64,000 nucleotides of DNA from an uncultured Ectothiorhodospiraceae bacterium (GTDB taxonomy: Bacteria > Bacteroidota > Ignavibacteria > SZUA-365 > GCA-2699105): positions 9,362-73,361 of the forward strand of contig CAYPBB010000010.1 in NCBI GenBank assembly GCA_964408855.1. The letters are read 5' to 3'. The number at the start of each line of letters is the position of its first letter. The first letter of the stretch is position 1. Positions 40,714 to 64,000 of the stretch are shown here, piece after piece. The position numbers and the translations under genes are program-made. The notes below the pieces were generated by a model, which made no database searches, was not told the DNA's origin, and saw only the letters and a program-made list of their open reading frames with translations.

Positions 40714-40929
40714 CTACGCCCGCTGTCCGGACTTGAGATCGCGTTCGCGTTTCTCTGCTTCCAAGCGATTGAGAAATTCTTCCGTATACACCAAAGTCCA
40801 TGGTATACCGCGTTTCGTGAAGGTACTTTTCCCGGAATTATGCTGTTACAACCGCACCTCCAGATCCATTGTTGAACCGATGTACCGCTTTCGCAGGGTC
40901 GGACTCCAGAGCACGTACGTGTAAAACAT
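40714..40929 (-). pseudogene. GIY-YIG nuclease (UPF0213/YhbQ-like) with in-frame stop
   Basis: MFYTYVLWS..RKRYIGST.DLEVRL*QHNSGKSTFTKRGIPWTLVYTEEFLNRLEAEKRERDLKSGQRA*; TAA at 40846-40848. Confidence 0.85.
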
Positions 40930-40970
40930 TGTCACTCCCTCAGTAAGCAAAAGAGAGCCCGTCAGTCGCC

Positions 40971-41253
40971 GGACTCCTTTCGCGGAGAGGGTGGGATGCG
41001 AATCCGGCGGACGTGTCTGCATCCGGCCACCGACGGACCGGACTTTTCTCGCCGTACGCCTCGACAGCACACGGGTATTAATAAGGAGTCCGGATCTAGG
41101 ACTCCTTTCGCGGAGAGGGTGGGATGCGAATCCGGCGGACGTGTCTGCATCCGGCCACCGACGGACCGGACTTTTCTCGCCGTACGCCTCGACAGCCCAC
41201 GGGTACTAAAAAGGAGTCCGGATCTAGGACTCCTTTCGCGGAGAGGGTGGGAT
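40971..41253 (-). repeat. 128-bp tandem repeat (2 full units plus partial third), each with a terminator hairpin and a degenerate tRNA-Ser 3' end
   Basis: GGACTCCTTTCGCGGAGAGGGTGGGAT at 40971, 41099 and 41227; units 1 and 2 differ at 3 positions. Confidence 0.95.
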
Positions 41254-41262
41254 TCGAACCCA
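41239..41262 (-). other. 3' fragment of tRNA-Ser (T-arm plus acceptor strand), probable att core
   Basis: Minus strand TGGGTTCGAATCCCACCCTCTCCG (TTCGAATC T-loop, CCTCTCC acceptor strand, G discriminator); no tRNA 5' half upstream. Confidence 0.8.
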
Positions 41263-41481
41263 TAGCAGCCTAACTCGGCGTGTGACAATGGGTTAAATAC
41301 ACAGATTTCAAACCTTTCACATTTCTTTCACAAGTCTGAAGGCTTTCAGTGTTGCAGAGTTGCAGGCTTGCACGGCTACGATGGCTTGAGGTTCATTCCG
41401 AATCTATTTACGTTACCACCATATATGCTTAATTCGTCTGCGAGAAACGGGTCTTTGATCCCAGAATGGTCGGGGTGTTTT

Positions 41482-42972
41482 TTATCTCGCTTTTTTCGGA
41501 TTAGTTCTTGATTCTATCGATGGCGAACTTGTTTGAACATCAGAATGGTTATGCGTTTGTTCAATTCTGATTGAAGACGGTACAATTATTTCGAGTTTCT
41601 CAACACTTGTATTAGTTTGCTTAGAACTCCCGTAATTGGCGATGCACCAAGTAATAAGAAGTAAGCTGAATGCGAGAACTGCATAAAATACAGAGATCTT
41701 TTGTTTTGAATGTAGTTTGAACGATGGACTTCTCTCGCTTATCGATTTTGTCAGGTTCAATTCTGGGTAATGCTTTGACCAAATATCTTCAATTCTTGAT
41801 GAGCTCAAAACAGCACCTATTAGCAAATTGTGATACCAATGTCTGTCCATGAACCAGAAGACGCCCATCACAAACACACCTACGATTGGCATCAGAACTC
41901 CTGCAGACATCTCAAATCCAAGGACTGATATTGAGTAGTGCTCGTTTGCTAACCAACCAGTAGCAACAATAGTAAATGTAAATAGCGTTAGGGCGAAGTT
42001 CCTGATACGAAGCTCCAGGTCGTTGAAATGCATCTGAACCTCAATTGCCTTTTCCCAGATCTCCCTTGCTTCAGCGAAACGTGTGCTACGATCGTGTCCT
42101 ACATATTGCTCAAATTTGTATTGGTCTTGAATCTCCTTGTATGACTTTTTAAGGACAATCGTAGGTTCATTTGTAGATGTCTTCTTCTCCTCTTTTGCTT
42201 TTTTCTCTCGTTCTACTTCCTCATCGGACCAATGTGTAACCTCCCTTAGAAGATTGTATGCATCATTATCTGTTTCGGACCCATACTTGGCGTATATGCT
42301 ATCTACATTGACATCATTTGCCATCGCGATATCGCGATCCAGTTTGTCGCCAACGTAAATGACCTCGTCTGTTTTCAACCCGAAGTCACGAATAATAATG
42401 TTCAAGATTTCCGGGTTTGGTTTTTTTGTTTCCTTAGACAGATATCTGAACTGCGTGATTTTAGGTTCCCAGTATCCTTCTTCATAGTAACGCTTTGCGG
42501 AGGCTGGTAATCCTTCGTCGATAGGTGCATATACGAAGTCTATGAGGCCATCCAAACCCAAATGCTTTATCCGATACTTCGTGTAGAATGCACTTGACTC
42601 TGTGAAACCGACAACAAGTGTACCGGAAGCTGCTGCAAGTCGCAGTGTTTCAAGTACACCATCGTAAAGTTGAAGACTGTTCTTTTTATTGGAATTGTAT
42701 TCGTGAATAATGCTTCGTTTGTCTCCAGCACTGTCCTCAAAACGGCTCTTCTGCTCTTCGGTTAGACAATCCAATTCATGATAGAAGTGTGAAGATTCCG
42801 ACGAACCGTACTGTTGATGTAACCGTTTGAATGAAGCCTTAAGTTCTTCTCGGTCTACGGAAAACTCTTCTGCTATACGATTGAAGTATGGCTTGAACGA
42901 AGCATGCCACATACCGAGCCAATCCCAGATTGTATCATCTAAATCGGTAACGAGCATCTTAATTGCCTTCAT
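41482..42972 (-). CDS. HAD-superfamily phosphatase fused to a C-terminal three-TM domain; candidate anti-phage protein
   Basis: DLDDT (motif I), FTES (II), KKPNP (III), YVGDKLDRD (IV); three hydrophobic helices after about residue 305. Confidence 0.8.
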   Translation of the reverse strand: MKAIKMLVTDLDDTIWDWLGMWHASFKPYFNRIAEEFSVDREELKASFKRLHQQYGSSESSHFYHELDCLTEEQKSRFEDSAGDKRSIIHEYNSNKKNSLQLYDGVLETLRLAAASGTLVVGFTESSAFYTKYRIKHLGLDGLIDFVYAPIDEGLPASAKRYYEEGYWEPKITQFRYLSKETKKPNPEILNIIIRDFGLKTDEVIYVGDKLDRDIAMANDVNVDSIYAKYGSETDNDAYNLLREVTHWSDEEVEREKKAKEEKKTSTNEPTIVLKKSYKEIQDQYKFEQYVGHDRSTRFAEAREIWEKAIEVQMHFNDLELRIRNFALTLFTFTIVATGWLANEHYSISVLGFEMSAGVLMPIVGVFVMGVFWFMDRHWYHNLLIGAVLSSSRIEDIWSKHYPELNLTKSISERSPSFKLHSKQKISVFYAVLAFSLLLITWCIANYGSSKQTNTSVEKLEIIVPSSIRIEQTHNHSDVQTSSPSIESRTNPKKAR

Positions 42973-48943: not shown

Positions 48944-49375
48944 TCCAAAAGTGATAATCCCCTAGAAAATGGGTCCCATACCCCACCCCCCCGGGAGTGG
49001 AGTCAGACTGCCATACAAAACAAACCCGTTTTCTGGAGAGAATTCGGGTTTCGATTTTTTTTTGCCCATATTTTGGGAACCCCATTAGCGATTTTGCCCC
49101 GGATTCTAGAAGAGTCTTCCTTTTTACCGCGATAGGATTCACCAAGATCGCCCCGAAGATGCTATGTCCTATATTACTTGACACTTACAACAGCACGGCC
49201 CCTCTGATGCTGCCATCCTCCCCCAGCATTACGTTTCCATCAAATTGCTCATACATATTTCGTCATTCTGCACAATTTTCGTAAGTTTGCCCTTACAGTT
49301 TCAGAAATCTCAGTGTTTTTCGGTGACAATGGACGACCGTTAAAACGGGGGCCCTACCAAGTAAGTGAGAGTATT

Positions 49376-52300
49376 ATGACTTGCTTCTCAAGGATATCCA
49401 AAAATTCTCAAATTCGTACTTCACGTTCACTTCTATTTGCTGTGCTGCTCGTGATGTCTGGGATTCTTACATTATCCTTCGAGAGTAATGCTCAATGTGT
49501 CGTTTTTACCTCACCTACAAGCGGAACAATCGTTTCGCCTGGTGAGACTATCACAGTCACGGGAAATGTAATCAGTCCGAGTAGCTATGGACACTACGTA
49601 ACAATTTATTTCGGCACAACGAATTGTGAAATAGGCGAAATGGTGAGTGGATCGTCTTGTTCTTCAGCTTCCTCGGGAGGTTTTAGCGTCAATATTACCA
49701 TCCCAAATTATGTTGCGACAAATTGCATATACAGAATCTATGGTAGTATTGGTGGAAATTGCGATCCAAAGGAACCCGATCATCCCTGTGCCTGTAACGG
49801 CAACGGAGCATCTATTGAATTGGTCATAACCTGCGATGGCGCACCTCCATACCAACTTCAAGCCCCAAATTTAATATCCCCCATTAATTTTGAAGACAGA
49901 GTACGGAATCCAGCATACCATACCTGGGGAGATGTTCAGAACGCAGAGTTCTACGAAATTCAAGTCGACCCCTCTCCTAATTTCGATACGATTGTTCTTC
50001 AAGATTCCCTTGGCAAACCCTACTACGTTCCGATATTCAGAACAACTATTGATAGAACACAAACTGAGTTTATAGATTTTGCACCTGATTGGGAGAACAC
50101 AACATTTTATTGGCGTGTTCGTGCTGGATCATGTGACTGTAAGGTTTGGGGCCCATGGTCCGAGACATGGAGTTATACTACTGCACCTTGCATATCATTA
50201 GAGTTGCCCTTGAATGGTACAATATTTCAATCCGGTGAAATTACTTTGGTAGAAGGCCGAATTGTGGAGCCGCTTCTCTGGGGTAAAGAGGTAAGTGTAT
50301 GGCTAAATGGCCCCTACTATTATCCACCTGATCCCCAATACCCACCAAGTGAGATCGGACATGGATGTTCCTCCTTGAATGATGGAAGCTTCTCTTTGGA
50401 AATCACCCTGCTATCAGATCCTGGTGATGGTATTGCGCGTTCATTGGTCGATGGTGGATGGACCTTGACCCCTTATGTATTATCCAACGACGACTGTATT
50501 GGTGATGAGTATTATTGCGGTGGTGTTTCACAAGGTATATTCTACATCTACAACGACCTCCCACTTACACGTATTCAGGAACAAATTGGGCGAAATACTT
50601 CGTCAATCTATGTAGATGATCCAGTTGATATAATCACTGGAAACTTTCTTTATTCTGCGAACGATATCCACATCCCTGACAAGTTGGGAATCAACCTTAC
50701 TCGCAATTACAACAGCCAAAATATTCAGAATTCAGAACTCGGTGCAGGTTGGTCTTTCACGTTCGGTGCATCGCTTCAATTAGTTGATGATTGGAGAATC
50801 ATTGCACGCGGGGACGGAAGAAGGTTCGTCTTCAAGATGGATAGCTTGGGGACATACATACCCATGGAGTTTGCAGGAACAGAAGGTACGCTCGATTCAG
50901 CCACAACCGTTTGGACCTACACCAGCAAGTACGGATACAAGTATGATTTTGATAACACGGGACTGCTGCAATCCCTCAGTGACAGAAACGGAAACGAGAC
51001 AAGGTGCTTCTACAAAACGCACAACATGATCGATAGCTTGGTCATTCCTGGGGATAGACGTATTACCTTCTCATACTTGACAAGTCCGGATACGCTCATC
51101 GAATCCATTACTGATTTTATCGGCAGGACTCACAGGTATGCGTACGACACCGAAAGTAATCTTATCAGCTATATCAATCCTAGAGGCGACACGACCAAGT
51201 ACGAGTACGATACACAGCATCATCTGACAAAAATCATTGATCCCAGGGGCAACGTGTTTATTCAGAACAACTATGACCCCAAGGGACGTGTGATTGAGCA
51301 GTACGATGCCTTCGGTGCACGAACCGAGTTTGTGTACGATACGCTCGGGATGAGTACATACGTAGTCAACTACCTCGGTGATACAACAACATACGTCTAC
51401 GATCAGCACCACAGGATACTTTCGCAAACAACAGCTCTTGGATACTCTGAGTCATACGCTTACGATTCAACAAACAATCGAGCGTCGATCGATGACATGA
51501 ACGATGAGCTGTTCTCCTATCCTGAATACAGCCCCTTTGGTGATGTTGCCAGGGAGGAGAATCCTGTCTCGCAGGTCCGTACGTTCTCATACGATAGCAC
51601 AACAGGCGACTTGCTTGCGAGAGGTGATGACCTTGGCACCCTGGAAGAACGGAGCTACTCCACAAACGGTCTCCTCTTACAGCTAACGGATGCAAATGGA
51701 TCAGCGACCAATATGACATACGATGGTTATGGCTACCTGGAATCGACATCCATGGTAGCAGATGGGGCTTCCCGGACTACAGAATACGATTACGACATAG
51801 CCGGACGTATGCTCTCCAGGAAGAATCCGGAAGGAGATGTCACGGATTATCAATACGATGAATCTGATAATGTCACGTCTACCCTCTTTGCCAACGGAGC
51901 CAGTACTCAGAATGAATATGACGCAAACGACAATCTCATCAAGTCGATAGATCGAAACGGTAATGAGACCCGCTTTGAGTACGATGTAAACAATAACCTG
52001 CGGTTTGTTTACGCTCCTGAGAGCAAAACGACGGAGTATCGTTACGACAGTTTGAATCGCGTGACCAGTATGATCGATGCCGAAGGCGGTGTCTATGCGT
52101 ATCAATACGATGCCATGGGAAGAAAGACGCTTTCCATTGATCCGATAGGACGAACTACACACATGGGATACGACGGCAATGGCAACATGCTGTTCTCCAC
52201 CTCACCGAAAGGCGATACGACGCAGTTTATCTACAACGCTATCAATCAACTTGTTGAGAAGGTTAGTCCCGAAGGAAACACAACAAGTTACAGCTATGAT

Positions 52301-55300
52301 GTACGGGGAAGTCTCACTCAGATATCATATCCGAGTGGCAATACAATAGAGTACACATACGACGGGAACGGGAACCAGACATCAAAGAAGGAATATCTCG
52401 ACTCTACGACTACAAGGACCACAACCTACACATACAACGAAGCCAACCAGCTTGTGGAAACAACATATCCAAGCGGTGGAAAGGAGAAACGTACCTACGA
52501 CCGGAATGGCAATCTGATTGAACTGGTTACCATTGATGGCAAAACGACAGCATACGAATACAACGAGATGAACCGGGTTTCGAAAGAAACTGATTACAGG
52601 CAATTCTCCCAAGCGTATCAGTATGACAACAATCTGAACCTTCTTTCTGAGACTGATGATCTTGGAAGGCGGACAGCATACGCATACGACAAGGTCAACA
52701 GACAGGTAAGCACTACCGATCCCATCGGGAATACAGACTCCCTGGTGTACGACAAGCTCGATCGCGTTGTGCAAATGATCGATGCCAATGGAAATGCAAC
52801 AGTGTATGGCTATGATGCCGCTGGTCAACTGACTAGCGTCACGGATCCGCTTGGTAATTCCATGTCGTACCAGTATGATCTCAACGGTAATCTGTCACAG
52901 ATCACTTATGGAAATGGAAGAGTTGTAAGCGGCTTCATCTATGATAAGGACAACCGGTTACTCAACGAACCCGATCCGCCGACGTGGTACACGTACGATC
53001 CAAATGGCAACATTGCCTCGAAAGTCGATGCGAATGGTGATACAACTTCATACGAATACGATGGCGCCAATCAACTGCTCAGGAAGACCTTCAGCAGCGG
53101 AGGGAGCGTCCAGTATTCCTATAATGCAAATGGACTAGTGGAAAGCATAGAAGATGAGCAAGGACTTATCCGGATGCAGCACAATGCCGCAAATCAGTTG
53201 CTGGAACTTGCCACCCCGGATGGTATAATCCAGTACCAATATGCCGGTCCGAACAGGGTATCGATGAAGTATCCGAATGATGAGTTGCTCAAGTACTCCT
53301 ACGACCGCAACCGGCTTACAACCATTGAAGGGACCAGGGATGCAATAAGCTATACGTACTATGACAATGGACTCATTGAATCTTTGACCTATCCTGATAG
53401 TTCCGTTACTTATTATGCTTATGACGAAGCGAACCAGTTAGAGACGATCCTCAGTGAAACATCCGATGGTGAACTCATCACATCGGATGCTTACAAGTAC
53501 GATGAAGCAGGGAACAGAGTGATCAACATTCGCACGAGGCGCAGAAACCCCGGATTTGTCGGGGTACTTGTGGACAGCACGCTTCCCATGACGGCACTTC
53601 TAGCAAAGCATTTCTTCGATTCGCCAGTGGATACTATTCTCATCTGCTCCAATAGAGGATTCGCGCACAATGCTACTATAGCTGCCTATGCAAGTAAGCT
53701 CAATGCTCCGGTATTGTATGTGAATCCAAACACTCTGGTCGGCTCTCCCGAATTTACTACCGTCTTCTCGGACTTGACAGCAGGGTTCTCAGCTCCGCAT
53801 GCCATCGTATTTGGCGATGAAACTACCGTTTCCGATTACGTCGTTTCGCAATTGCACAGACTTGGTTGTACTACGGTGAGGATTTTTGGCAACAATCGTT
53901 TCGAAACCGCCAATCTCGTTGCCTCAAAGTTGCCAGTATATTCTGGTCAAAGAAAAGCATTCCTCACGGGATCATCGAATCCGGAAGACCTGGCCATATC
54001 TGCGTATGCTTCGGCGCTTCTGGGCATTCCTCAGTATATGACGTACAACGACGAGCTTGCACCTGAAACACTTGCTGCATTACAATCAGCGGGAATAGAT
54101 TCCATCATTGTTGTTGGCAACTCCATATCCGACGCTGTACTTCAGCAGTTGATAAGCAATGGAATTGTAGTAGTGCAACGATTTGATCAAGACAATATCC
54201 GCGAGCGTAGCGCAGCCATTCTGACAAACAGCGGGACCAACTTGGCTGAGAAGGGTCCCCTTTATCTTTGCGAGTCAAAGAACTTCAGGGAAGCGATTGC
54301 CATTTCAACTTACGTTGCGAACAGGAGCGGGTATGTCATCTGTGTGGATGATCCGGCCGACTATCTTGCAACAGTCTCGGACATGATCTCAATTGGCACT
54401 GAGGTTGATTCGATTTTCCTGCTGCAGACAAATCCGTTTGTCGACCAACAGGCGATTCAAATCCAACAGACGTTTTTCGGATACGAGGTTGATACTGTAC
54501 GCTACACCTACGATGATATGAACCAGCTTCTTGCCGAGAGCAGCAAGACATTTGGTGTGATGCAGTACACGTATGATGCCAACTACAATCGATCACGCCT
54601 TGTGGACAATGGTGTTGCTACCGATTACGCCTACGATACCTGGGACCGTCTTATCTCTGCCGGTACTACTGCGATGAATTACGACGGCAATGGAAACTTG
54701 ATAACCGAAACTGACGCTGACAAAACAAGTCAGTATGTATGGGATAGTCGTGGACGGCTCGCCGAGTACAACAATTCTCTTGGAGATACTGCACGATACA
54801 CCTACGATGCGCTAAACCATCGCATTCGTATTTCGAACATTCATTCCGAAGCATCTCCTGAGACAACCTCCTTGGTCTATGGTGACGATTGGGATGCTAT
54901 CCTCGAATTCGGTACGGCAGAAGACTCAATCAACTATCTGAGTGGTTTTGGTATCGATGATGTGTATCTGTCCCGCTCAGAGCAGGTATCGTTCCTCTAC
55001 AAAGATGCACTAGGGAGTATTGTTAGCGCAAGTAGCGACGAATCACAATCGTTCTCATCCTTGATGTACGATGGATTTGGGAATGCGAACCGGAATCTGA
55101 GTGTGTTTCCTTTGAGGTACTCGTACACAGGGCGGGAGTATGATTCACCTCTCAAGGGCTATTATTACCGAAATCGCACATACTCAGCTAGAAGAGGAAG
55201 ATTTCTATCGATGGATCCTATTGATCCACAAAAATGGTATTCTAGCAGTTTAAATAAGTACATTTATGTTAAAAACAATCCAGTGCGCTGCATCGATCCG

Positions 55301-55837
55301 AATGGGTATTATGGAATTGCGGTCAACTTCAATGCATCTATAGCATACTACGTTGGATTAGATTTTGACGTTACAATTGGATACGATGATAAGATTGGCT
55401 TATATAACAGCAATGACGTTGGGCTGCTCATCGGTATGGGATTGGATGGTAATGCATCTCTCGATATAGTTACAGAAGATAAAGTTCTGACTAGACATGG
55501 AGTAATTGTAAAGATACCAATTTCTGCCGATTTAGAGGTAGTTAAAGTCATTAGTGCAACACTCCTTGGCTTAGAGTATAGAGTTGGATCAGATGAAATC
55601 AGTATAAATCCCGATGTTGCATTTGCCAATGTCCATGGTGGTAGCAAAATTAATTTCTCTCTAAAAGAGTTGCAGTTGCCTGACGCTTATCCCAAGTTTG
55701 GCTTGCGCGGCGGGGTCGGGGCAGCACTAAAAATCGCCTCTATCTCGTATAGAAGTGAGAATACTATTGATATATCATGGATTACACCACATATATATAA
55801 TGCGAAAAGGATGTTAGACGAAATCATATTAAGATAA
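49376..55837 (+). CDS. Rhs/YD-repeat protein: signal peptide, Ig/FN3-like domains, DUF6531, YD repeats with inserted CWB2 trimer, Rhs core, about 176-aa C-terminal domain
   Basis: DPVDIITGN...LTRNYNSQ...LGAGWSFTF (DUF6531); YxYD repeats; GNNRFETA (CWB2); YSYTGREYD...YYYRNRTY...FLSMDP...NNPVRCIDPNG. Confidence 0.93.
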   Translation: MTCFSRISKNSQIRTSRSLLFAVLLVMSGILTLSFESNAQCVVFTSPTSGTIVSPGETITVTGNVISPSSYGHYVTIYFGTTNCEIGEMVSGSSCSSASSGGFSVNITIPNYVATNCIYRIYGSIGGNCDPKEPDHPCACNGNGASIELVITCDGAPPYQLQAPNLISPINFEDRVRNPAYHTWGDVQNAEFYEIQVDPSPNFDTIVLQDSLGKPYYVPIFRTTIDRTQTEFIDFAPDWENTTFYWRVRAGSCDCKVWGPWSETWSYTTAPCISLELPLNGTIFQSGEITLVEGRIVEPLLWGKEVSVWLNGPYYYPPDPQYPPSEIGHGCSSLNDGSFSLEITLLSDPGDGIARSLVDGGWTLTPYVLSNDDCIGDEYYCGGVSQGIFYIYNDLPLTRIQEQIGRNTSSIYVDDPVDIITGNFLYSANDIHIPDKLGINLTRNYNSQNIQNSELGAGWSFTFGASLQLVDDWRIIARGDGRRFVFKMDSLGTYIPMEFAGTEGTLDSATTVWTYTSKYGYKYDFDNTGLLQSLSDRNGNETRCFYKTHNMIDSLVIPGDRRITFSYLTSPDTLIESITDFIGRTHRYAYDTESNLISYINPRGDTTKYEYDTQHHLTKIIDPRGNVFIQNNYDPKGRVIEQYDAFGARTEFVYDTLGMSTYVVNYLGDTTTYVYDQHHRILSQTTALGYSESYAYDSTNNRASIDDMNDELFSYPEYSPFGDVAREENPVSQVRTFSYDSTTGDLLARGDDLGTLEERSYSTNGLLLQLTDANGSATNMTYDGYGYLESTSMVADGASRTTEYDYDIAGRMLSRKNPEGDVTDYQYDESDNVTSTLFANGASTQNEYDANDNLIKSIDRNGNETRFEYDVNNNLRFVYAPESKTTEYRYDSLNRVTSMIDAEGGVYAYQYDAMGRKTLSIDPIGRTTHMGYDGNGNMLFSTSPKGDTTQFIYNAINQLVEKVSPEGNTTSYSYDVRGSLTQISYPSGNTIEYTYDGNGNQTSKKEYLDSTTTRTTTYTYNEANQLVETTYPSGGKEKRTYDRNGNLIELVTIDGKTTAYEYNEMNRVSKETDYRQFSQAYQYDNNLNLLSETDDLGRRTAYAYDKVNRQVSTTDPIGNTDSLVYDKLDRVVQMIDANGNATVYGYDAAGQLTSVTDPLGNSMSYQYDLNGNLSQITYGNGRVVSGFIYDKDNRLLNEPDPPTWYTYDPNGNIASKVDANGDTTSYEYDGANQLLRKTFSSGGSVQYSYNANGLVESIEDEQGLIRMQHNAANQLLELATPDGIIQYQYAGPNRVSMKYPNDELLKYSYDRNRLTTIEGTRDAISYTYYDNGLIESLTYPDSSVTYYAYDEANQLETILSETSDGELITSDAYKYDEAGNRVINIRTRRRNPGFVGVLVDSTLPMTALLAKHFFDSPVDTILICSNRGFAHNATIAAYASKLNAPVLYVNPNTLVGSPEFTTVFSDLTAGFSAPHAIVFGDETTVSDYVVSQLHRLGCTTVRIFGNNRFETANLVASKLPVYSGQRKAFLTGSSNPEDLAISAYASALLGIPQYMTYNDELAPETLAALQSAGIDSIIVVGNSISDAVLQQLISNGIVVVQRFDQDNIRERSAAILTNSGTNLAEKGPLYLCESKNFREAIAISTYVANRSGYVICVDDPADYLATVSDMISIGTEVDSIFLLQTNPFVDQQAIQIQQTFFGYEVDTVRYTYDDMNQLLAESSKTFGVMQYTYDANYNRSRLVDNGVATDYAYDTWDRLISAGTTAMNYDGNGNLITETDADKTSQYVWDSRGRLAEYNNSLGDTARYTYDALNHRIRISNIHSEASPETTSLVYGDDWDAILEFGTAEDSINYLSGFGIDDVYLSRSEQVSFLYKDALGSIVSASSDESQSFSSLMYDGFGNANRNLSVFPLRYSYTGREYDSPLKGYYYRNRTYSARRGRFLSMDPIDPQKWYSSSLNKYIYVKNNPVRCIDPNGYYGIAVNFNASIAYYVGLDFDVTIGYDDKIGLYNSNDVGLLIGMGLDGNASLDIVTEDKVLTRHGVIVKIPISADLEVVKVISATLLGLEYRVGSDEISINPDVAFANVHGGSKINFSLKELQLPDAYPKFGLRGGVGAALKIASISYRSENTIDISWITPHIYNAKRMLDEIILR

Positions 55838-55904
55838 CTATATCTCAATGGATGTTATACGAATCTAGATTGTCAATAAGTGATAATGCATTGATACTGA
55901 GGTA

Positions 55905-58517
55905 ATGATGATATACGTAATTGTTGATTCACTTGCACTATTTTCATTTATTTGTTGTTTGTTTCAATCGGCATTTGCGCAATCTGTGAATCCTGTGGGT
56001 ACGTCACTAGAGGTTTATGAATCATCTAACTCTATAAGTGTTGGTATTGTTTCAATTTCGCAAATTAATTCACACTCTTTCCTGCATGAACTGCGCTCAG
56101 GTGGAAACGGCTCCCTCATCGCATCCATTCCCGATCAATTGAAAGGCATGCCAACGTCCATCGCCGTTTTCGACCATACTATCCTAATCGGCTACCAGGA
56201 CTCAAACGAAGTACTCTTTTACAACTGTGTAACCTCTGCACAAACTTCCATCAAGTCTCCGAACAAGCATCTATTCGGTACTACTATCTCCAATGTCGCG
56301 AGTAGCTCTGGTCATGATTATTTTTGTGTTGCAGCAGAAACGTCCGGACAGGTCTTTCTGTATGATGGGCTCCCTAGTGCATTTGACCTATACGAACAGG
56401 TTCTTGAAGGTCTTCCCAGTTCTGGCTATGGACGAAGCTTGAGAGTTATTGACAATCTCACGGGCAATAATAAACCGTACGTTATTGTAGGAGGCCCATA
56501 CACATCAGATTCACTTATGGAGTACGGGAAGATTTACCTGTACTCAGGCCAACCGTTTGTCTTGGTGGATTCGATTTCAGGACCATGTGAATACTCGCAT
56601 TTTGGATCATCTCTTTCATCGGGCGATGTAAACGGCGACAGCTATCACGATCTAGTAGTAAGCGCCCCTGGCTCGGGAAATCATCACGAAGGAGCTGTCT
56701 ACGTGTACTACGGAGGGCCTCATTTCGATACAACCCCGGACAAAGCCTACTACGGGACACAGGCAGACGAATTGTTCGGTAACTCCATTCTTGCAGTAGA
56801 TCGTCGAACTGCTATGATTGGTGGCCTCGCGATTGGCAGCTACAATGCATCGCACAATGGCCAGTCCCGCAACGGCGCCTTGCACTGGTACAACATCACA
56901 AATCCACCGAACAGCAAAGCGGATACGGTGATCTATGGCGAAGCATCAAGCGATCACATGGGCTGGGCTTCTGCATTCATGTCCAAGTCTGCCACCTCTG
57001 ATTCCTGCGCAATACTCTACTCGTCACCGTACAATAGCTCGGCCAACAGTATTGAAGGCAAGGTGCATGTACTGGACCTCTTCAAACCGCGAGTCAAAGG
57101 ATTCGTAATCAATACATACCCGGAAAACATTGGCCTTAAGATCAAGGTCGAAAACAAGGAGTATCGGGACGGAGTCACTCTCGAATCAATCGTCGGAACG
57201 CCCTATCTGTTGTATACACAGGAAGTGCAGTATTCAGACTCGACTAATCAGCAAGTTCGCTGGCGTTTCGACCGGTGGAGTGATGGTGGAGAAAGAATCC
57301 ACAACGTCACCGCCGAAGAAGGAACTGTGATTACGGCATACTTCAAGAAAGAGGTAATGATTACATCGAGCGTCCTTCCGAACTGCGGCTCAACAGGTGT
57401 GTACGGTACAATCGAAGGTAATGAGTGGCATCAGGTGGGAACCTCGGAAACGCTCACCGCTATTCCGAGTCCCGGCGCAATGTTTTCGGGTTGGGAAGGC
57501 GCGGTCTCTCAAACCTCAGAGACTTTGACGCACGACTTCACTGAACCAACCACAGTTATTGCACGCTTCAAACTTCAGAATCCTGAAATAGACGATGTAC
57601 TCAACACGAGCATCAGCAGCAACGACCTGTCGATGGATATTTACTGGCATGATAATGCAAAAGGATTGGCAGAAGTTTGGACACTTGAGCGTAAATCATC
57701 TGTTGGAAATACGTGGAGTGAAGTAGCAACGCTCATCACGGGAAACAGTCCATACAGGGATACACACCAGCTCATCGAAAAAAGTAGCTATGCCTACCGG
57801 TTAAGAGCGAATTCATGCGATCCGACCAGCAATTCAGGCTATGGCGATATAGACCTTACAACGGTATTGGGGATGGATTCTGTCGTCATAGTCGAACCGC
57901 AGCCTCCGCTTGTAATTCAATATGACGACAATCACAATCCACTCGGAAATTTCCTGGTGAAGTTTTCACTCACGAACAAAACCGTGGATGAGTTCGAAGA
58001 CTCTCTTACTACGGAATTCATGGTCATGTCTGGGAATGTAGCATTGGCACCAGGTGAGATAGCATCGAAGCCATACTATGGTATCTTCACGACACAGGAG
58101 AATTACATCGCTACTTGGGAATGTGTCCCTGCGTATCAACCGTCAGACGACCTGGCAGTTGTCGCAATCAGATACTACCGCACCCCAGAACGCGCCGACA
58201 CTGCCTACAGTGAACCAATCGAGATTACACATACGATTGTCGGAATAGAATCGCCTCCTTCGGTACAATCGTACCGACTCTTTCAGAACTATCCCAATCC
58301 GTTTAGCGGCAACACAACCATTCTCTTCTACGCCAGTTCAAGCGCGACTGTCTCTTTGGTCATCCATGACATACTTGGCCATCCCGTGTACAAACGTGGA
58401 ATAGAGCCTACCGTAGGCCTCAATAGAATTGACATCAGCGGACTCCCATCCGGATCATATCTCTACGTTCTCCAAACTAATGAAGGATCGTTGTCCGGGA
58501 TAATGATAGCAAGATAA
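55905..58517 (+). CDS. T9SS-secreted FG-GAP/integrin-alpha propeller protein with InlB-type repeat and FN3-like domains
   Basis: Signal peptide; GDVNGDSYHDLVVSAPG...GAVYVYYG; FDRWSDGG, FSGWEG; LFQNYPNPF...SGSYLY CTD. Confidence 0.85.
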   Translation: MMIYVIVDSLALFSFICCLFQSAFAQSVNPVGTSLEVYESSNSISVGIVSISQINSHSFLHELRSGGNGSLIASIPDQLKGMPTSIAVFDHTILIGYQDSNEVLFYNCVTSAQTSIKSPNKHLFGTTISNVASSSGHDYFCVAAETSGQVFLYDGLPSAFDLYEQVLEGLPSSGYGRSLRVIDNLTGNNKPYVIVGGPYTSDSLMEYGKIYLYSGQPFVLVDSISGPCEYSHFGSSLSSGDVNGDSYHDLVVSAPGSGNHHEGAVYVYYGGPHFDTTPDKAYYGTQADELFGNSILAVDRRTAMIGGLAIGSYNASHNGQSRNGALHWYNITNPPNSKADTVIYGEASSDHMGWASAFMSKSATSDSCAILYSSPYNSSANSIEGKVHVLDLFKPRVKGFVINTYPENIGLKIKVENKEYRDGVTLESIVGTPYLLYTQEVQYSDSTNQQVRWRFDRWSDGGERIHNVTAEEGTVITAYFKKEVMITSSVLPNCGSTGVYGTIEGNEWHQVGTSETLTAIPSPGAMFSGWEGAVSQTSETLTHDFTEPTTVIARFKLQNPEIDDVLNTSISSNDLSMDIYWHDNAKGLAEVWTLERKSSVGNTWSEVATLITGNSPYRDTHQLIEKSSYAYRLRANSCDPTSNSGYGDIDLTTVLGMDSVVIVEPQPPLVIQYDDNHNPLGNFLVKFSLTNKTVDEFEDSLTTEFMVMSGNVALAPGEIASKPYYGIFTTQENYIATWECVPAYQPSDDLAVVAIRYYRTPERADTAYSEPIEITHTIVGIESPPSVQSYRLFQNYPNPFSGNTTILFYASSSATVSLVIHDILGHPVYKRGIEPTVGLNRIDISGLPSGSYLYVLQTNEGSLSGIMIAR

Positions 58518-58539
58518 GAACCTAAATTCGGGGTCACGC

Positions 58540-58580
58540 GAAAGGCACACATCTGGTCAAATGCACTGGGTGTGCCTTTC
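58540..58580. terminator. Hairpin between convergent units
   Basis: GAAAGGCACAC ... GTGTGCCTTTC. Confidence 0.55.
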
Positions 58581-58743
58581 TGTAATTGAACTAGCAATCT
58601 CCTCGCTGAAAGAAGTTTCTACCCATCCCCCCCAGCGTGTTGACTAAGAGTTCCCTAACTCAAGACCTGATTACCTGGAAAGGGTACGGCCTATATTTAC
58701 CTACCCCCGGGTCTTCGATTCTGAGAATTTTCTGGGGGATTGT

Positions 58744-59451
58744 TCACCCTATCACCGTCCTTTCCAACCGGTCCTTCCAGCGCTCCCAGTCCGGCATGGC
58801 TGCCGACATCAGCCGGTAGAATTTCTTGTCGTGATTTGGATGAACTAGATGGCAAAGCTCATGTATGATGACGTAATCGATACACACGAGCGGGGCTTTT
58901 ATGAGTTCGGTGTTCAGCGTAATGGTGCCATGGCCGGTGCAGCTCCCCCAACGTGATGTCATCGTTCGCAAGATGATTTTGGGATATGCAGCGCCTCGTT
59001 TAGCGAACCAGGGGTAATACCCATCAACCTTCCGGTTGAACATTTCTGATGCATGCTTCCGGTACCAATCTCGCATCACTTTTTTAGCTGAGGAAGAATC
59101 CATTGGCTCCGGTAATTCTACCTCAAAGAACTTCCCCACTAGCCGTACTCGTCTCTTCTCGCCTAGTCTGATTTTCAATCGATATTGCCGCCCCAGGTAG
59201 TAGTGCGTTTCTCCGCTCACGTATTCACGTGGAGGTTGAAGAGGGTGGAATTGGTCGAAATAGTTGAGTTGCTTCACAATCCAGGGTGCTTTGCGAAGAA
59301 TTCTAGACTTTACTTCCTCCAGCGGCTTTCCACTTGGCACTATTGCTTCGACTCTCATATCCGGATGCACATTGATCGTCAAGGACCTACGATCACGTTC
59401 GTGAACGATTACAACAAACCGTGTACTTCCATATTCGAAGAATAACTTCAA
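58744..59451 (-). CDS. M48/YgjP (DUF45) family metallopeptidase associated with type I R-M
   Basis: YVSGETHYYLG, MTSRWGSC, YVIIHELCH..HPNH...FY; directly downstream of hsdR. Confidence 0.9.
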   Translation of the reverse strand: MKLFFEYGSTRFVVIVHERDRRSLTINVHPDMRVEAIVPSGKPLEEVKSRILRKAPWIVKQLNYFDQFHPLQPPREYVSGETHYYLGRQYRLKIRLGEKRRVRLVGKFFEVELPEPMDSSSAKKVMRDWYRKHASEMFNRKVDGYYPWFAKRGAAYPKIILRTMTSRWGSCTGHGTITLNTELIKAPLVCIDYVIIHELCHLVHPNHDKKFYRLMSAAMPDWERWKDRLERTVIG

Positions 59452-59457
59452 GGTCTA

Positions 59458-62400
59458 CTACCTTTCTTCCCTGCTCTGGGCAATAGCAAGACACCGATCC
59501 ATAATCTCATCGAACTGGTCCACATCCACAGACAACCCATCATCCAACGCTTCGAAGAGCAGATCATCCAGTTCATTTCGCATCTTGTTCTTTTGTGGTT
59601 CGTTGTAGTACCAGTTCACAATGCGTAGACGATTGATGACCTCATCTATTTTAAGACACAACTCTGCTGTTTTTTCAGCATCCGAATCGCCCGAGAAATT
59701 CTTGATGCTTCGAAAATATGCAGCCGCGACATCATTGTTTTGCAACCTGGCCGGCAGATCGTCTCCGCGTCTCGTACGAACTTGCTCCTCAAACTGTCTT
59801 ACCTTCGATAGATACTCGCTCTCACTGATACGCTTGTTACGAAAATCGTCGATCGTAGCCTGGATCAGTTCAGAGAAACGCTTATAGAATTCCGGATCCC
59901 TGTCCCAAAGCTCATTGATTGATTTCTTTGTCCTGTGAGCGATTGTGTCAGCTTTTGCTGCATCTGTTGAGAGCGCATCAACCTCAGCCTGGAATGCATC
60001 TTTCTCAAAGATGTTTACGGGTGCAATTATCGTTTCTACCTCTTCAGCACCAACGTACGTGTCAAGTAGTCTCTTGATTTTCGGTTCGTACTCTGCGAAG
60101 TCTACACTTTCGGCGAACCTGCGTCCCAGGCTGTGACGAATCTTGTTATAGCGTTTCAGATCTTGCTTGTACATCTCAATTGTAGCTGCAGGAGTAATCT
60201 CGTGGAACCTGACTGTCGATAGGGCCATTTCCATGACGTTCGCAAACTCTCGGAGGTTAGCATAGAACTTATCCCGTTCCGATCGTTCAGTCAGAAACTG
60301 CGCAATCTCCTCTGTGTCGTAGCGATTTCTTAGCGTTGTGAACTGACCGACCAGGACACTGTGTTTCTGCTTGACATCAGGCAACTGTTCTTTCACATCT
60401 GTCAGCAATCCTACCAGGTCTTTCGCGTCGAAATCTTCGAGCTTCTCGTAGAGCTTCAAAGCATTATCCAGCTCGCCAAGCACTCCGCGATAATCGATGA
60501 TGTAGCCATATTCCTTGGCTTCATACAGTCTGTTCACCCTGGCAATTGCCTGTAGGAGTGTATGCTCTTTCAGCATGCGAATGAGATAGAGAATAGTATT
60601 CCGAGGGGCGTCAAATCCTGTAAGAAGCTTATCGACGACAATGATTATCTCCGGATCGTCAGCGTTCTTGAAATTGGTGATAATCTGCGTATTGTACTTC
60701 TCCTCGCTTCCCCAACGGTACATCATCTTCTTCCAAAAGTCCAGCACGTCGTTCTTGTCGTCGTCACCTTCGATTTCACCTTCGCGATCATCGGGTCCGG
60801 AGATAAGAACCTCCGATGTCACCCGCTTAAAGGAATCAAGGTATTTCTTGTACTTCAATGCCGTAGCTTTGCTGGACGTTACCAGTTGAGCTTTGCGGTC
60901 CTTTCCTTTCCAGTTGTCAGCGAAATGCTCACTTATGTCCCAGGCAATTCTCATTATTCGCTGTTCAACGTTGTTGATCTGATCAGTGCTGGAGTACCGT
61001 TTCTTTAGGTCATTTGCTTCTTCCTTTGACAGCCTTTTTGTGACTTTCTCAAACCAATCGTCAATACTCTCCTTTTGTACGATTTGCTGAGAATGCCGAC
61101 CTTCGTAAAGTAACGGGACGACGGCTCCATCATCCACTGCTTGATTGATCGTATAGGTATCGATCAATCCACCAAACCGTTTTATGGTATCCTTTTCATT
61201 TCTTCTAACCGGCGTCCCTGTGAAGCCAATGAAACATGCCTTTCTCAACACGCGCTTCATTGCGCTGTGCAGTTTTCCATATTGAGTACGGTGCCCCTCG
61301 TCGACAAGCACGAAGACTTCTGTGCTGTCGATTGGCGCCTTCATCTTTACAAGCGCCGTCTCGAACTTATCAATGACTGTTGTAATGATACTGACATTAC
61401 GCCGTTCCAACATCTCGGCAAGATGTTTCCCGGATTTCGCTCTCTCCGGCTCCAGGTTGCAGTCAGAGAATGTATTGTAGATCTGCTCATCGAGATCAAC
61501 ACGGTCAGTAACGACGACGATTGTTTCGCCTTTAATCGCAGGTGACTGAAATATCCCTTGGACCAGCATCACCATACTTAACGACTTCCCACTTCCTTGC
61601 GTATGCCAGACCACTCCGCCTCTACGAGTCCCATCTTCATCAAATTCCAGTATCCTTTGCAGCATCTTTTCAACAACGAAATACTGCTGATACCGTGGTG
61701 TTTTTCGGACTCCCCTATCGAAGATGCTATATGACCGTATATTCTTGAGCAAGCGCTCACGGTTACAAAGCGCAAACAACAACCGGTCCTGCTCCGTTAC
61801 CATGCGATCGACATGATATTCGTTGGTTTCCTCGTTGACCACTCGTCCGCCCGGGATTGCGAGAGCACGGAGCTGTTCATTACTTAGACTCAGGTCGAAT
61901 ACCCTTTTTACGTCATCATCTGAATACTCGCGCTCCTTCCATACCGACCAGTACTCTCGTGATGTACGGACAGTCCCGTACTTTGCTGCACTCTCGGCCA
62001 CTGCAATCAGGAGTTGGGCGTAGTGAAACAGGCGTGGGATTTCATCCTCGTTCTGGTTCTTTATCATTTGATTGACAGCCTGGTCAACCGGGTCTGTTGT
62101 ACCTGGCGCCGCCCTGTCCTTACATTCGATGACCACTACGGGGATGCCGTTGATGAACAGCACAATGTCGGGTATTCGGTGCTTGTGCATACCAGACCGC
62201 TCTACCTTGAACTCCTCAACGACGTGGTAAACGTTACGATCCGAATTTTCCCAGTCGATGTAATGCAGTGTTTTGCTTTTAACGTCCTCACTTACTGTAA
62301 ACGATTTCCCATGTGTTAGTATCTCGTGGATTTTCTGATTCGTGGGGATAAAGCCACTTTCCTCCCTGCGCTTCAGGTCAAGCACAGCATCGCGGATAAC

Positions 62401-62622
62401 AGTCTCCGGGAAACGATGCTTCTTCCCAAGATGTTCATATTCTGCGTTTTGTTTGAGCCATTCACTAAGAACTTTCTCAAGTAAAACATTCGAGTAATCC
62501 TCCCCGCGTAGTTCGTAGACCTCGCCATCTGACAGATACTCCCAGCCAAGCTTTTGCAAAAGTATCAGGGCAGGGAGCTTGCTCTGTTCGTCCTCGTTGT
62601 GCTGGTGGATGTAGATTGCCAT
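59458..62622 (-). CDS. hsdR: Type I restriction enzyme R subunit
   Basis: PDIVLFINGIPVVVIECK nuclease motif; HTQGSGKS, VDEGHR, FTGTP, LLTGFDAP, LLQAIARVNR helicase motifs. Confidence 0.97.
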   Translation of the reverse strand: MAIYIHQHNEDEQSKLPALILLQKLGWEYLSDGEVYELRGEDYSNVLLEKVLSEWLKQNAEYEHLGKKHRFPETVIRDAVLDLKRREESGFIPTNQKIHEILTHGKSFTVSEDVKSKTLHYIDWENSDRNVYHVVEEFKVERSGMHKHRIPDIVLFINGIPVVVIECKDRAAPGTTDPVDQAVNQMIKNQNEDEIPRLFHYAQLLIAVAESAAKYGTVRTSREYWSVWKEREYSDDDVKRVFDLSLSNEQLRALAIPGGRVVNEETNEYHVDRMVTEQDRLLFALCNRERLLKNIRSYSIFDRGVRKTPRYQQYFVVEKMLQRILEFDEDGTRRGGVVWHTQGSGKSLSMVMLVQGIFQSPAIKGETIVVVTDRVDLDEQIYNTFSDCNLEPERAKSGKHLAEMLERRNVSIITTVIDKFETALVKMKAPIDSTEVFVLVDEGHRTQYGKLHSAMKRVLRKACFIGFTGTPVRRNEKDTIKRFGGLIDTYTINQAVDDGAVVPLLYEGRHSQQIVQKESIDDWFEKVTKRLSKEEANDLKKRYSSTDQINNVEQRIMRIAWDISEHFADNWKGKDRKAQLVTSSKATALKYKKYLDSFKRVTSEVLISGPDDREGEIEGDDDKNDVLDFWKKMMYRWGSEEKYNTQIITNFKNADDPEIIIVVDKLLTGFDAPRNTILYLIRMLKEHTLLQAIARVNRLYEAKEYGYIIDYRGVLGELDNALKLYEKLEDFDAKDLVGLLTDVKEQLPDVKQKHSVLVGQFTTLRNRYDTEEIAQFLTERSERDKFYANLREFANVMEMALSTVRFHEITPAATIEMYKQDLKRYNKIRHSLGRRFAESVDFAEYEPKIKRLLDTYVGAEEVETIIAPVNIFEKDAFQAEVDALSTDAAKADTIAHRTKKSINELWDRDPEFYKRFSELIQATIDDFRNKRISESEYLSKVRQFEEQVRTRRGDDLPARLQNNDVAAAYFRSIKNFSGDSDAEKTAELCLKIDEVINRLRIVNWYYNEPQKNKMRNELDDLLFEALDDGLSVDVDQFDEIMDRCLAIAQSREER

Positions 62623-62626
62623 GTTT

Positions 62627-64000
62627 TTATTGTCCCTCCAACGCAGAAAACATCTTGTTAATAAAGCCTACTAACTCTGTGCGAGTCAATTCTCTTTCAG
62701 GTATAAAATCATCTATCTGATGACTTTCAGCGTTTGCTATTACCCTAATTTCGTTCAGCATTTCTGTCTTTTTATCGCTGATTAACGACCTATGTTTCAA
62801 TTCAGCGATCTTTGCTGACAGTTTGTCAATCTTTGATATGTACCGATAATATTGTCTGTTCAATACACCTTCTAATACATCTCGCATGAGATGTTGAATA
62901 TAGCTGATTGATTGCCCTGAATCATTTCTACAGTAGTCGTCTAACTCCTCTACTTTTTGCGCAAAACTATCTTTTGCGAATTCAGATGGATCACAGCGTT
63001 CATACCTGCTGCCAGTATCATCACAGCGAATTTCGAACTCTCCACTAACACCATATTTCTTCTTATCCCGGTAGTACTTTTGATGTTGAATAGCAACACT
63101 TTTCCGATGTGTTAACACAATTGTTTGCAAGCAGTCGGACGAAAGAGTTGCAATAATCTTTGCAGTCTGATATCTTCGGTCATCATCCATGCTTGTTAAT
63201 GGATCATCGTAGATCACAATTGTATCCGATAGTTTTGGATCGTACTTCAGCGATGCAATGAAGAATGCAAACGCAAGAGAATTCCGATCTCCACCGCTGA
63301 GTATATTCTTGAAACAAGGGACATTTTCACTCGAAGAGAGTGGAGCACCTTCACCGTTGATCACAATCTCGAATTCTGCGAGTTTACCCATCCTCTTGTC
63401 AGTCTTTTCTTTAAATGACCGAACAGAAAACGATGTATTCAGTTCCTTCAGTACTCTGTTTATCTCATCTTCGTAGTTGGAGAAGTTTCCAAGATACTTA
63501 TTCAGTTTGTCCTCGATTTCCTTGAACTTATCATCTGCTTTTTCTTTCTCTTCCTTGGCAGAATTGTAGCCAGTCACCCATACCATTCCCTCTTCAGTGA
63601 ATCGAAATAGGCGATGCTCGAATCCGCGCGTCTTTTTCTTCGCGTCTTCAATGCTGGCCGGACTCTCAGCCCGCTCTTTAAACGATGTTACCCTCTCATT
63701 GAGCGTCTTAATTTGTTCATTTATATCTGTCACAATCTGTTGAATCACAGATTTGGCGTCTTTGTACTTTTCTACGGCACCAGGTTCTGCCGTGCGATTG
63801 AGGTCTTCCACTTTTCGATTGAGTTCATTCTTCAGTGCTTCAAATGCTTTGCTCAACTGAGTCTTGAGTGCTTCCTGATCAACATCTTCGGTCAGAGAAC
63901 CTGAGAGCTCCTCCTTGATAATACTCGACCAGGAACTTATTTGGGCATCAATTTTCTGTATCTCAAGAATGAGCTTGTCTATGATGGTGTTAGCATCAAA
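62627..64000 (-). CDS. RloC-like AAA_13/SMC-type ATPase with C-terminal HEPN-like domain (5' end outside the window)
   Basis: Frame open to 64000; long coiled coil, LSGGDRNSLAFAFF signature, IVIYDDPLTSMD Walker B, IVLTH; HLMRDVLE...IANAESH. Confidence 0.75.
   Translation of the reverse strand, partial: FDANTIIDKLILEIQKIDAQISSWSSIIKEELSGSLTEDVDQEALKTQLSKAFEALKNELNRKVEDLNRTAEPGAVEKYKDAKSVIQQIVTDINEQIKTLNERVTSFKERAESPASIEDAKKKTRGFEHRLFRFTEEGMVWVTGYNSAKEEKEKADDKFKEIEDKLNKYLGNFSNYEDEINRVLKELNTSFSVRSFKEKTDKRMGKLAEFEIVINGEGAPLSSSENVPCFKNILSGGDRNSLAFAFFIASLKYDPKLSDTIVIYDDPLTSMDDDRRYQTAKIIATLSSDCLQTIVLTHRKSVAIQHQKYYRDKKKYGVSGEFEIRCDDTGSRYERCDPSEFAKDSFAQKVEELDDYCRNDSGQSISYIQHLMRDVLEGVLNRQYYRYISKIDKLSAKIAELKHRSLISDKKTEMLNEIRVIANAESHQIDDFIPERELTRTELVGFINKMFSALEGQ

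Follow-up and report, generated by a model that had tools for sequence, protein, structure and literature searches.

The 128-bp tandem array at positions 40971-41258 of the window, that is, of the whole 64-kb stretch of DNA that was analysed, is most likely an ordinary feature, composed of leftover integration sites rather than of tRNA mimics. The explanation preferred here, with moderate confidence, is that two of its three repeat copies (B and C) bounded an earlier insertion at an att site, that this insertion decayed and was duplicated, and that the third copy (A) represents the attR side of the island now resident at the locus. The repeat is the block from T arm to 3′ end that is typical of tRNA att sites and it lies at an island edge, and for this reason a reading as att sites or integration scars fits best. 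A preliminary description of this DNA had offered att sites, scars of serial integration, tRNA mimics and processed small RNAs as possible roles; its observation of the array is confirmed, and its interpretation is partly supported, with relics of att sites upheld and a tRNA mimic not supported. On the preferred reading, the array is evidence of repeated use of the tRNA-Ser site in this genome. In addition, it locates one edge of a defence and toxin island (RHS, type I restriction, RloC-like), which helps to delimit the island and to predict its excision products.

As listed in Table 1, three copies of a 35-bp repeat alternate with two spacers. TRF reports a period of 128 with 2.2 copies, 97% matches, 0 indels and a score of 548, and a 35-nt pattern made of the tRNA end and the following 12 nt matches the minus strand at 40971, 41099 and 41227 with 0, 0 and 2 mismatches, respectively; these are its only sites in the window, and 100 shuffles gave 0 matches. 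Each copy comprises 23 nt of a tRNA-Ser 3′ end, from the T arm to the discriminator, and a 12-nt trailer. On the minus strand, the order is island DNA, copy A, terminator T1 and spacer, copy B, T1 and spacer, copy C, terminator T2, a GIY-YIG pseudogene and the chromosome, and no further copy of the unit occurs within the 64-kb window. The exact 128-bp period, the hairpin with a TAGATCC loop in each unit, the additional GC-rich stems and the substitutions common to the array copies had all been described before, and all are borne out: the hairpin follows copies A and B, both inner complements (TCCGG...CCGGA and GGATGC...GCATCC) are present in the sequence, and copies B and C have the same two differences from the copy at 41227-41261, namely G53 to A and A58 to C. 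G53 and A58 are universally conserved in tRNAs. Spacers A and B differ at 3 positions, all in the first 25 nt, and units A and B at 5, all in the first ~60 nt.

Table 1. Features of the array and its surroundings (positions in the window).
Feature	Position	Strand	Description or basis
Copy A, orphan tRNA-Ser 3′ fragment	41227-41262	-	TGGGTTCGAATCCCACCCTCTCCG (41262-41239) + trailer CGAAAGGAGTCC
Spacer A, 93 nt	41134-41226	-	3′ half of T1 + G+C-rich stretch
Copy B	41099-41133	-	GGATTCGCATCCCACCCTCTCCG + 12-nt trailer CGAAAGGAGTCC; 0 mismatches to copy C
Spacer B, 93 nt	41006-41098	-	TRF, sequence
Copy C	40971-41005	-	Identical to copy B; unique chromosomal sequence beyond
T1 after copy A	41210-41236	-	Arms 41210-41219/41227-41236; perfect 10-bp stem, 7-nt loop
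T1 after copy B	41083-41107	-	Arms 41083-41091/41099-41107; same stem, U-tract decayed to TTATTAAT
T2	40944-40980	-	5′ half common with repeat; other 3′ half GGCGACTGACGGGCTCTC, then TTTTGCTT
Small GIY-YIG nuclease pseudogene	40714-40929	-	71 codons; Pfam GIY-YIG 3.1e-14
Non-coding island end beside copy A	41263-41481	-	~220 bp; TRF, sequence
8-bp periodic repeat	41340-41377	-	4.6 copies, 76% matches; TGCAAGCC TGCAACTC TGCAACAC, TGCAA-type (TRF)
Horizontally acquired island	41482-64000, past window end	.	G+C, Pfam, best relatives

The tRNA likeness of copy A and that of copies B and C begin within 1 nt of a common position, G51/T50, and to the left of this edge A and B/C each have their own sequence. 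In tRNA orientation, copy A is flanked by island DNA to the left and by unit sequence to the right, copy B has unit sequence on both sides, and copy C is followed on its 3′ side by native unique DNA and the other terminator. The sequence TGGGTTCGAATCCCACCCTCTCCG at 41239-41262 is Ser-specific, its last 15 nt occurring only in tRNA-Ser among the ARAGORN-called tRNAs of the matches listed, from at least 120 loci fetched with a 15-nt core. The preliminary description, which had called it an exact tRNA end, was thus right about the sequence but not in so far as the end of a gene was meant: ARAGORN found 0 tRNA or tmRNA genes in the 64-kb window, and no Rfam family reached its gathering threshold there. 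As there is no tRNA gene in 64 kb, copy A is an orphan 3′ fragment. A degenerate whole tRNA-Ser paralogue was rejected because the likeness stops at G51/G52. A coding role of the array was also rejected, since the period of 128 bp is not a multiple of 3; the two spurious open reading frames across the array have no Pfam match, and look-ups of their proteins gave no match. Around copy C only, a 10-nt inverted repeat (CGCCGGATTC / GAGTCCGGCG, 90% complementary) spans 40967-41009; a palindrome of the large-serine-recombinase type was considered at this place and rejected, as the symmetry is limited to the outer 10 nt.

Two kinds of terminator-like hairpin accompany the copies. T1, with the form AAAGGAGTCC-TAGATCC-GGACTCCTT(T), follows copies A and B; after copy A, its 3′ half reads TAGATCC GGACTCCTTT and TTTTTAG comes next, giving a terminator-like arrangement with a fold of -22.8 kcal/mol (z -3.8). 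T2 follows copy C and had been missed in the earlier work as regards its 3′ half. It is an imperfect hairpin with a U-tract, in which the 5′ half AAAGGAGTCC is shared and copy C continues into GGCGACTGACGGGCTCTCTTTTGC; a terminator scan flagged it at 40977-40954, and its fold amounts to -25.9 kcal/mol (z -3.3). T2 is probably the native terminator of the tRNA, and both T1 and T2 probably serve as terminators today. If the GG just outside the 35-bp repeat on the native side is included, 11 bp can pair with the T1 3′ half, which hints that the ancestral hairpin may have been AAAGGAGTCCGG...CCGGACTCCTTT.

The array starts exactly at the end of island DNA. On the tRNA-5′ side of the outer fragment lies horizontally acquired DNA, recognised by a shift in G+C (0.41-0.48 in the island vs 0.53-0.58 in much of the left part), by mobile and defence genes and by discordant best relatives. 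The best homologues of the island's HAD protein are at most 52% identical, and those named by source come from Bacteroidota genera, whereas the best relatives of the chromosomal 780-aa neighbour are Melioribacteraceae, at ~55% protein identity. These nearest genomes, reached through the 780-aa neighbour, are not syntenic and have no tRNA at the locus. The cargo of the island includes a HAD-family membrane protein, a DUF5659 protein, a DUF5906 primase-like protein, a 2174-aa RHS-repeat protein, a T9SS substrate (T9SS-tailed FG-GAP protein), YgjP and the type I restriction protein HsdR; an AAA_13/DUF4145 (RloC-like) gene overruns the window end. The genes for RHS, T9SS-tailed FG-GAP, YgjP, HsdR and AAA_13/DUF4145 proteins occupy 49313-64000. 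No contig encoding the island HsdR was returned on look-up. The left part of the window holds ordinary genes, and no recombinase or integrase gene was found in the 64 kb. Within the non-coding island end, the 8-bp periodic repeat lies 80-115 nt from copy A and is a candidate set of arm-type recombinase binding sites. In addition, two overlapping terminator-like hairpins lie on the plus strand at 41453-41489, directly after the stop of the minus-strand HAD gene, where there is no plus-strand gene to terminate.

The layout can be accounted for by the following proposed order of events. The island would have integrated into the 3′ part of a tRNA-Ser gene, so that the array forms the distal (attR-side) junction and the intact tRNA-Ser and the integrase would lie past the window, at the far end of the island. 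Copy A would be the tRNA 3′ end displaced by the resident island (the proposed attR), and its position is the one expected for the distal junction (attR) of a tRNA-targeting island that measures at least 23 kb. Copies B and C would bound two copies of the 128-bp unit (the 35-bp repeat plus 93 bp), a probable remnant of an earlier insertion at the same site that decayed nearly to its two arms, as a miniature 'cis-mobilizable element' (CIME). The presence of 2.27 copies implies that a 35-bp direct repeat around 93 bp predates any tandem duplication, and such a prior repeat is exactly the product of a site-specific insertion into a tRNA 3′ end. A second copy of the unit would then have arisen when the 35-bp repeats underwent unequal exchange, through homologous recombination or the action of a recombinase, and the island may have integrated into the att site beside the resident relic, leaving copy A to flank it. 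Copy B would correspond to an attP-like internal junction and copy C to the attR-like outermost junction. The inserted DNA is proposed to have brought its own T1 3′ half and to have pushed T2 to the far end; carrying this half, it would have left the rebuilt tRNA terminated. Of the readings offered earlier, that of att sites or serial-integration scars fits the context best; the spacers are copies of one another and point to one duplicated relic, not to two independent scars.

The two 'substitutions' of copies B and C, in GGATTCGC|ATCCC, would likewise be the core arm of the old element and not mutations of the tRNA end, since the likely T-loop crossover is to the right of both, so that they can be read as the element's own arm sequence. 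The core arm of B/C forms GGAT/ATCC inverted repeats. As in tRNA att sites, the repeat consists of the 3′ part of the tRNA, starts in or next to a loop and runs past the 3′ end, and all 3 copies point the same way. A T-loop start is also seen elsewhere: at no fewer than about 35 tRNA-Ser loci, the gene and a fragment a short way downstream share a block of identity whose first base lies 0-3 nt ahead of ATCCCACC (T loop). The units are probably inert DNA today, although copies B and C might retain some use as secondary sites of recombination. If TAGATCCGGACTCC... stands to the right of the tRNA-Ser at the far end, the island would belong to the same family as the relic.

It has been reported that integration, decay to a CIME and accretion of a further element form a route to such tandems (PMC5704250), and that the ssrA islands of Dehalococcoides carry tandem repeats starting from the T loop, with one base consistently unlike the gene (PMC3146451). 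In the CIME-ICE/IME tandems of streptococci and in the Dehalococcoides ssrA islands, as in the array, successive insertions downstream of a small-RNA gene are set off by direct repeats of the gene's 3′ part, and internal repeats likewise mark decayed elements without recombination genes (PMC5704250, PMC3146451). The array differs from these systems in that its 'elements' are only 93 bp long and are mutual copies, that its repeat runs 12 nt beyond the tRNA into the terminator stem, and that the recombinase and the intact gene are absent from the window. Several points weigh against the att-relic reading. There is neither an integrase nor an intact tRNA-Ser in the window, so the target of the island is a presumptive one; the collections searched yielded no relative or empty site; the 93-bp remnant is very small and contains nothing recognisably element-derived; and the clustering of the 5 unit differences in the first ~60 nt is left unexplained. 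Furthermore, arrays of tRNA 3′ ends occur without a nearby island at E. coli tyrT and at three tRNA-Ser loci (L137, L048 and L057), which means that an integration history is not the sole route to this layout.

A possible, though rather unlikely, account is that the units are an RtT-like element, namely a native transcribed trailer repeat of tRNA-Ser that was parted from its gene by integration of the island, its units being freed by tRNA-processing enzymes, with the 5′ segment paired to the tRNA-like 3′ strand. The comparison with E. coli tyrT made in the preliminary description proved apt, as the locus, when examined, had the same layout: it has a period of 178 and 3.1 copies, each unit ends in ATCCTTCCCCCACCACCA, and four RF00391 matches score 133-137 bits. 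In RtT (E. coli tyrT-tyrV, RF00391, rttR), as in the array, head-to-tail units lie on the tRNA strand with the tRNA 3′ end terminal, the fractional last copy is the tRNA end alone, and all copies but the last share one trailer. However, the RtT units are 178 bp long and follow intact tRNA genes, whereas those of the array are 128 bp long, do not directly follow an intact tRNA and are parted from any tRNA by the island DNA that precedes copy A. Similarly, the T loop of RtT is interrupted by ~65 nt of G+C-rich hairpins, while the T arm of the array is uninterrupted but altered.

Other tRNA-Ser loci bear on the same account. Pairs of tRNA-Ser cores with a distance of 113-143 bp between them were sought with a gapped pattern, which gave at least 120 loci. 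Among the matches listed, about two thirds are tandem pairs of tRNA-Ser genes, and at least about 40 loci from many phyla have a tRNA-Ser with a downstream copy of its 3′ end, several of them as arrays. The core with trailer, the variant core, the shortened core with trailer and the T1 hairpin had no exact matches in the collections scanned, which for each query were one or more of genome_contigs, viral_contigs and the JGI metagenomes, and a spacer 20-mer had 5 metagenome matches, all in unrelated and mostly coding sequence. The units at the >= ~40 loci (numbered between L038 and L155, for instance L051, L053, L075, L079, L088, L096, L113, L117, L122 and L128) measure 113-143 bp, follow tRNA-Ser and end in (CGA)ATCCCACCCTCTCCGCCA; they often begin with a terminator, contain an 'anti-T-arm' GGTGGGATGAGAACCC and have the T loop interrupted by G+C-rich hairpins. 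Among the matches listed, many units have a 5′ segment complementary to ATCCCACC, and a gammaproteobacterial group has inner hairpins in common with E. coli RtT. No Rfam family matched these units at its gathering threshold; only the gammaproteobacterial group (L088) comes near RtT, and, among the matches listed, units of other phyla are not recognised by the RtT model. The occurrence of tRNA-3′-end units after tRNA-Ser in many phyla indicates that the RtT layout at tyrT is no enterobacterial oddity.

Further arrangements were noted in the same survey. In L137 (rc 1476-1962), L048 and L057, the 3′ half of tRNA-Ser(CGA), from the anticodon loop onwards, is arrayed with a period of 81-87 bp, with 1 extra copy in two genomes and 4 in the third; these arrays separate the tRNA from a conserved downstream gene, and no island is present. 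In L070 (5415-5546, uncultured Ignavibacteria), L115 and L131, a pseudo-tRNA-Ser has its T loop split after GGGTTC by REP-like perfect palindromes, such as TCAGCCGGAGGCTGA present twice. The L070 contig stops at the second core, as do the Logan contigs of the window's organism.

In support of an RtT-like element, many tRNA-Ser genes carry such units and several of them fold strongly (z -4 to -6.6); the L088 unit matches RF00391 with 39 bits (E 2.5e-6), and among four Saccharibacteria units, 7 of 32 pairs have undergone compensatory changes. The window unit could form an outer pairing of 11 bp with a 2-nt bulge, between GGTGG-cc-GGATGC and GCATCC-CACC, and its GCGAG could pair with the acceptor strand, the register being that of the Saccharibacteria units. 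Moreover, the changed base at position 58 is the site of the T-loop insertion in RtT-type units. On the other side, the array has no RF00391 match at E ≤ 10, far from the scores of the E. coli units; the duplex between core and upstream spacer is not clearly above shuffles (p 0.03-0.08); RtT-type units have a P2 hairpin and G+C-rich inner hairpins that the array lacks; of the three spacer differences, one disrupts a predicted pair; and the T1 hairpin after copy A would block read-through. A sigma-70-like promoter was not found, and the phylum may use other promoters. The folds of the units are unremarkable, at z -1.6 and +0.7, and the fold and covariance analysis of the unit that had been proposed earlier brought, at E ≤ 10, nothing beyond weak matches resembling tRNA ends, and no notable structure apart from the terminators. 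Membership of the window unit in the RtT-like class is accordingly doubtful.

A broader form of this account, in which the units are the Ignavibacteriota version of a widespread and largely unrecognised class of tRNA trailers that includes E. coli RtT, is considered unlikely. Such units would be modular, with ends that match the neighbouring tRNA (a 5′ anti-T-arm and a 3′ T-arm/acceptor strand), and would represent either small mobile DNAs with the T loop as their insertion site or RNAs released by processing. The window array would then be a stripped-down member, in which the base at position 58 marks the usual insertion point. The att-relic and RtT-like readings may converge if RtT-type units descend from T-loop insertions; a shared origin by site-specific insertion in the T loop, if true, would explain the source of RtT-type repeats, and the window array alone does not establish it.

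Amplification driven by DNA breaks, in which a once-intact GIY-YIG nuclease cut near the tRNA end and repair through short repeats duplicated the unit, is quite improbable, and it concerns the copying of the unit rather than its nature. It has been reported that SegB, a GIY-YIG nuclease of phage T6, drives tandem amplification of a tRNA-Tyr segment via homologous recombination (PMC13096335). As in T6 (PMC13096335), a GIY-YIG gene in the window adjoins tRNA sequence and a tandem repeat; unlike in T6, these stand in a bacterial chromosome, the nuclease gene is disrupted and forms no part of the unit, and no complete tRNA occurs within the units. The pseudogene starts 41 nt after copy C and has an in-frame TAA at codon 28 (bases 40846-40848), a stop that is also present in the independent contig L001. 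A small GIY-YIG gene lies 40-70 nt 3′ of a tRNA-Ser end on the same strand in the window and in L115 (2972-3608), L081 (4169-4378) and L062 (5011-5220), four unrelated lineages in all. L115 (Calditrichia) has two GIY-YIG copies, each between a tRNA-Ser and a tRNA-Ser 3′ fragment or pseudo-tRNA. These positions next to tRNA-Ser, and in L115 between duplicates of its 3′ end, speak for a role of the nuclease; its inactivation and its place outside the repeat unit speak against one, as does the want of evidence for a cleavage site, and ordinary unequal crossing-over between the 35-bp repeats suffices.

It is very improbable that the units are tRNA mimics or decoys, that is, tRNA-like RNAs that interact with enzymes acting on tRNAs, for example the island's RloC-like nuclease. 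The only points in favour are the 23-nt match to the tRNA-Ser 3′ end and the presence of the AAA_13/DUF4145 gene in the same island, and this gene lies ~21 kb from the array and not beside it, as had been stated in the preliminary description. RloC-type enzymes cut the anticodon loop, and the units have no anticodon loop to serve as target; they also have no acceptor 5′ strand, D arm or anticodon arm, and G53 and A58 are replaced in B and C. No cloverleaf was recognised by ARAGORN or by the Rfam tRNA model, even at E ≤ 10, and a cmscan of 40800-41500 at that threshold gave no tRNA, RtT or sX4 match. Together with the z values of the unit folds, this argues against a tRNA mimic or a processed small RNA. 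The only cmscan matches at E ≤ 10 were an antisense plastid tRNA-Ser-end motif, SpF41 and a viral pseudoknot, and the fold of the whole array (z -2.0) is due to the terminators. SpF41 (RF02435, Streptococcus) aligns weakly to copy A and T1 (17 bits, E 7.7), covering T arm, acceptor strand and terminator with a score far under the gathering threshold. In the model of sX4 (RF02223, Xanthomonas), which has no match in the window, a tRNA-Ser is joined to a trailer that folds back onto the T-arm strand. SpF41 and sX4 are both sRNA candidates that consist of a tRNA 3′ fragment and a terminator. [quoted passage not shown]

Independent read support was sought in Logan contigs of three sequencing runs (SRR12489243, SRR12489244 and SRR12489248), for which k is taken to be 31. 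All five contigs break at the repeat. Those with the chromosomal neighbour (L001-L003) all start with CGCATCCC...GGAGTCCGGCG at copy C, and those with the last gene of the island all finish with ...GAATCCC...GGAGTCCTAG. These breaks match the k-mer branch points predicted for three junction types, namely A (GAATCCC..TCC-TAG), B (GCATCCC..TCC-TAG) and C (GCATCCC..TCC-GGC). As A-, B- and C-type junctions are all present in the reads, there are at least 2 spacers, the read support applying to junction types and not to the exact copy number. Mis-assembly across a single tRNA fragment, which the earlier work had named as a way in which the array might prove false, is barely credible: short-read assemblers do break here, with five of five contigs stopping at the repeat, but the two spacers differ at 3 positions, and the breaks in all three runs fall where three junction types predict them, so that the array is no assembly artefact.
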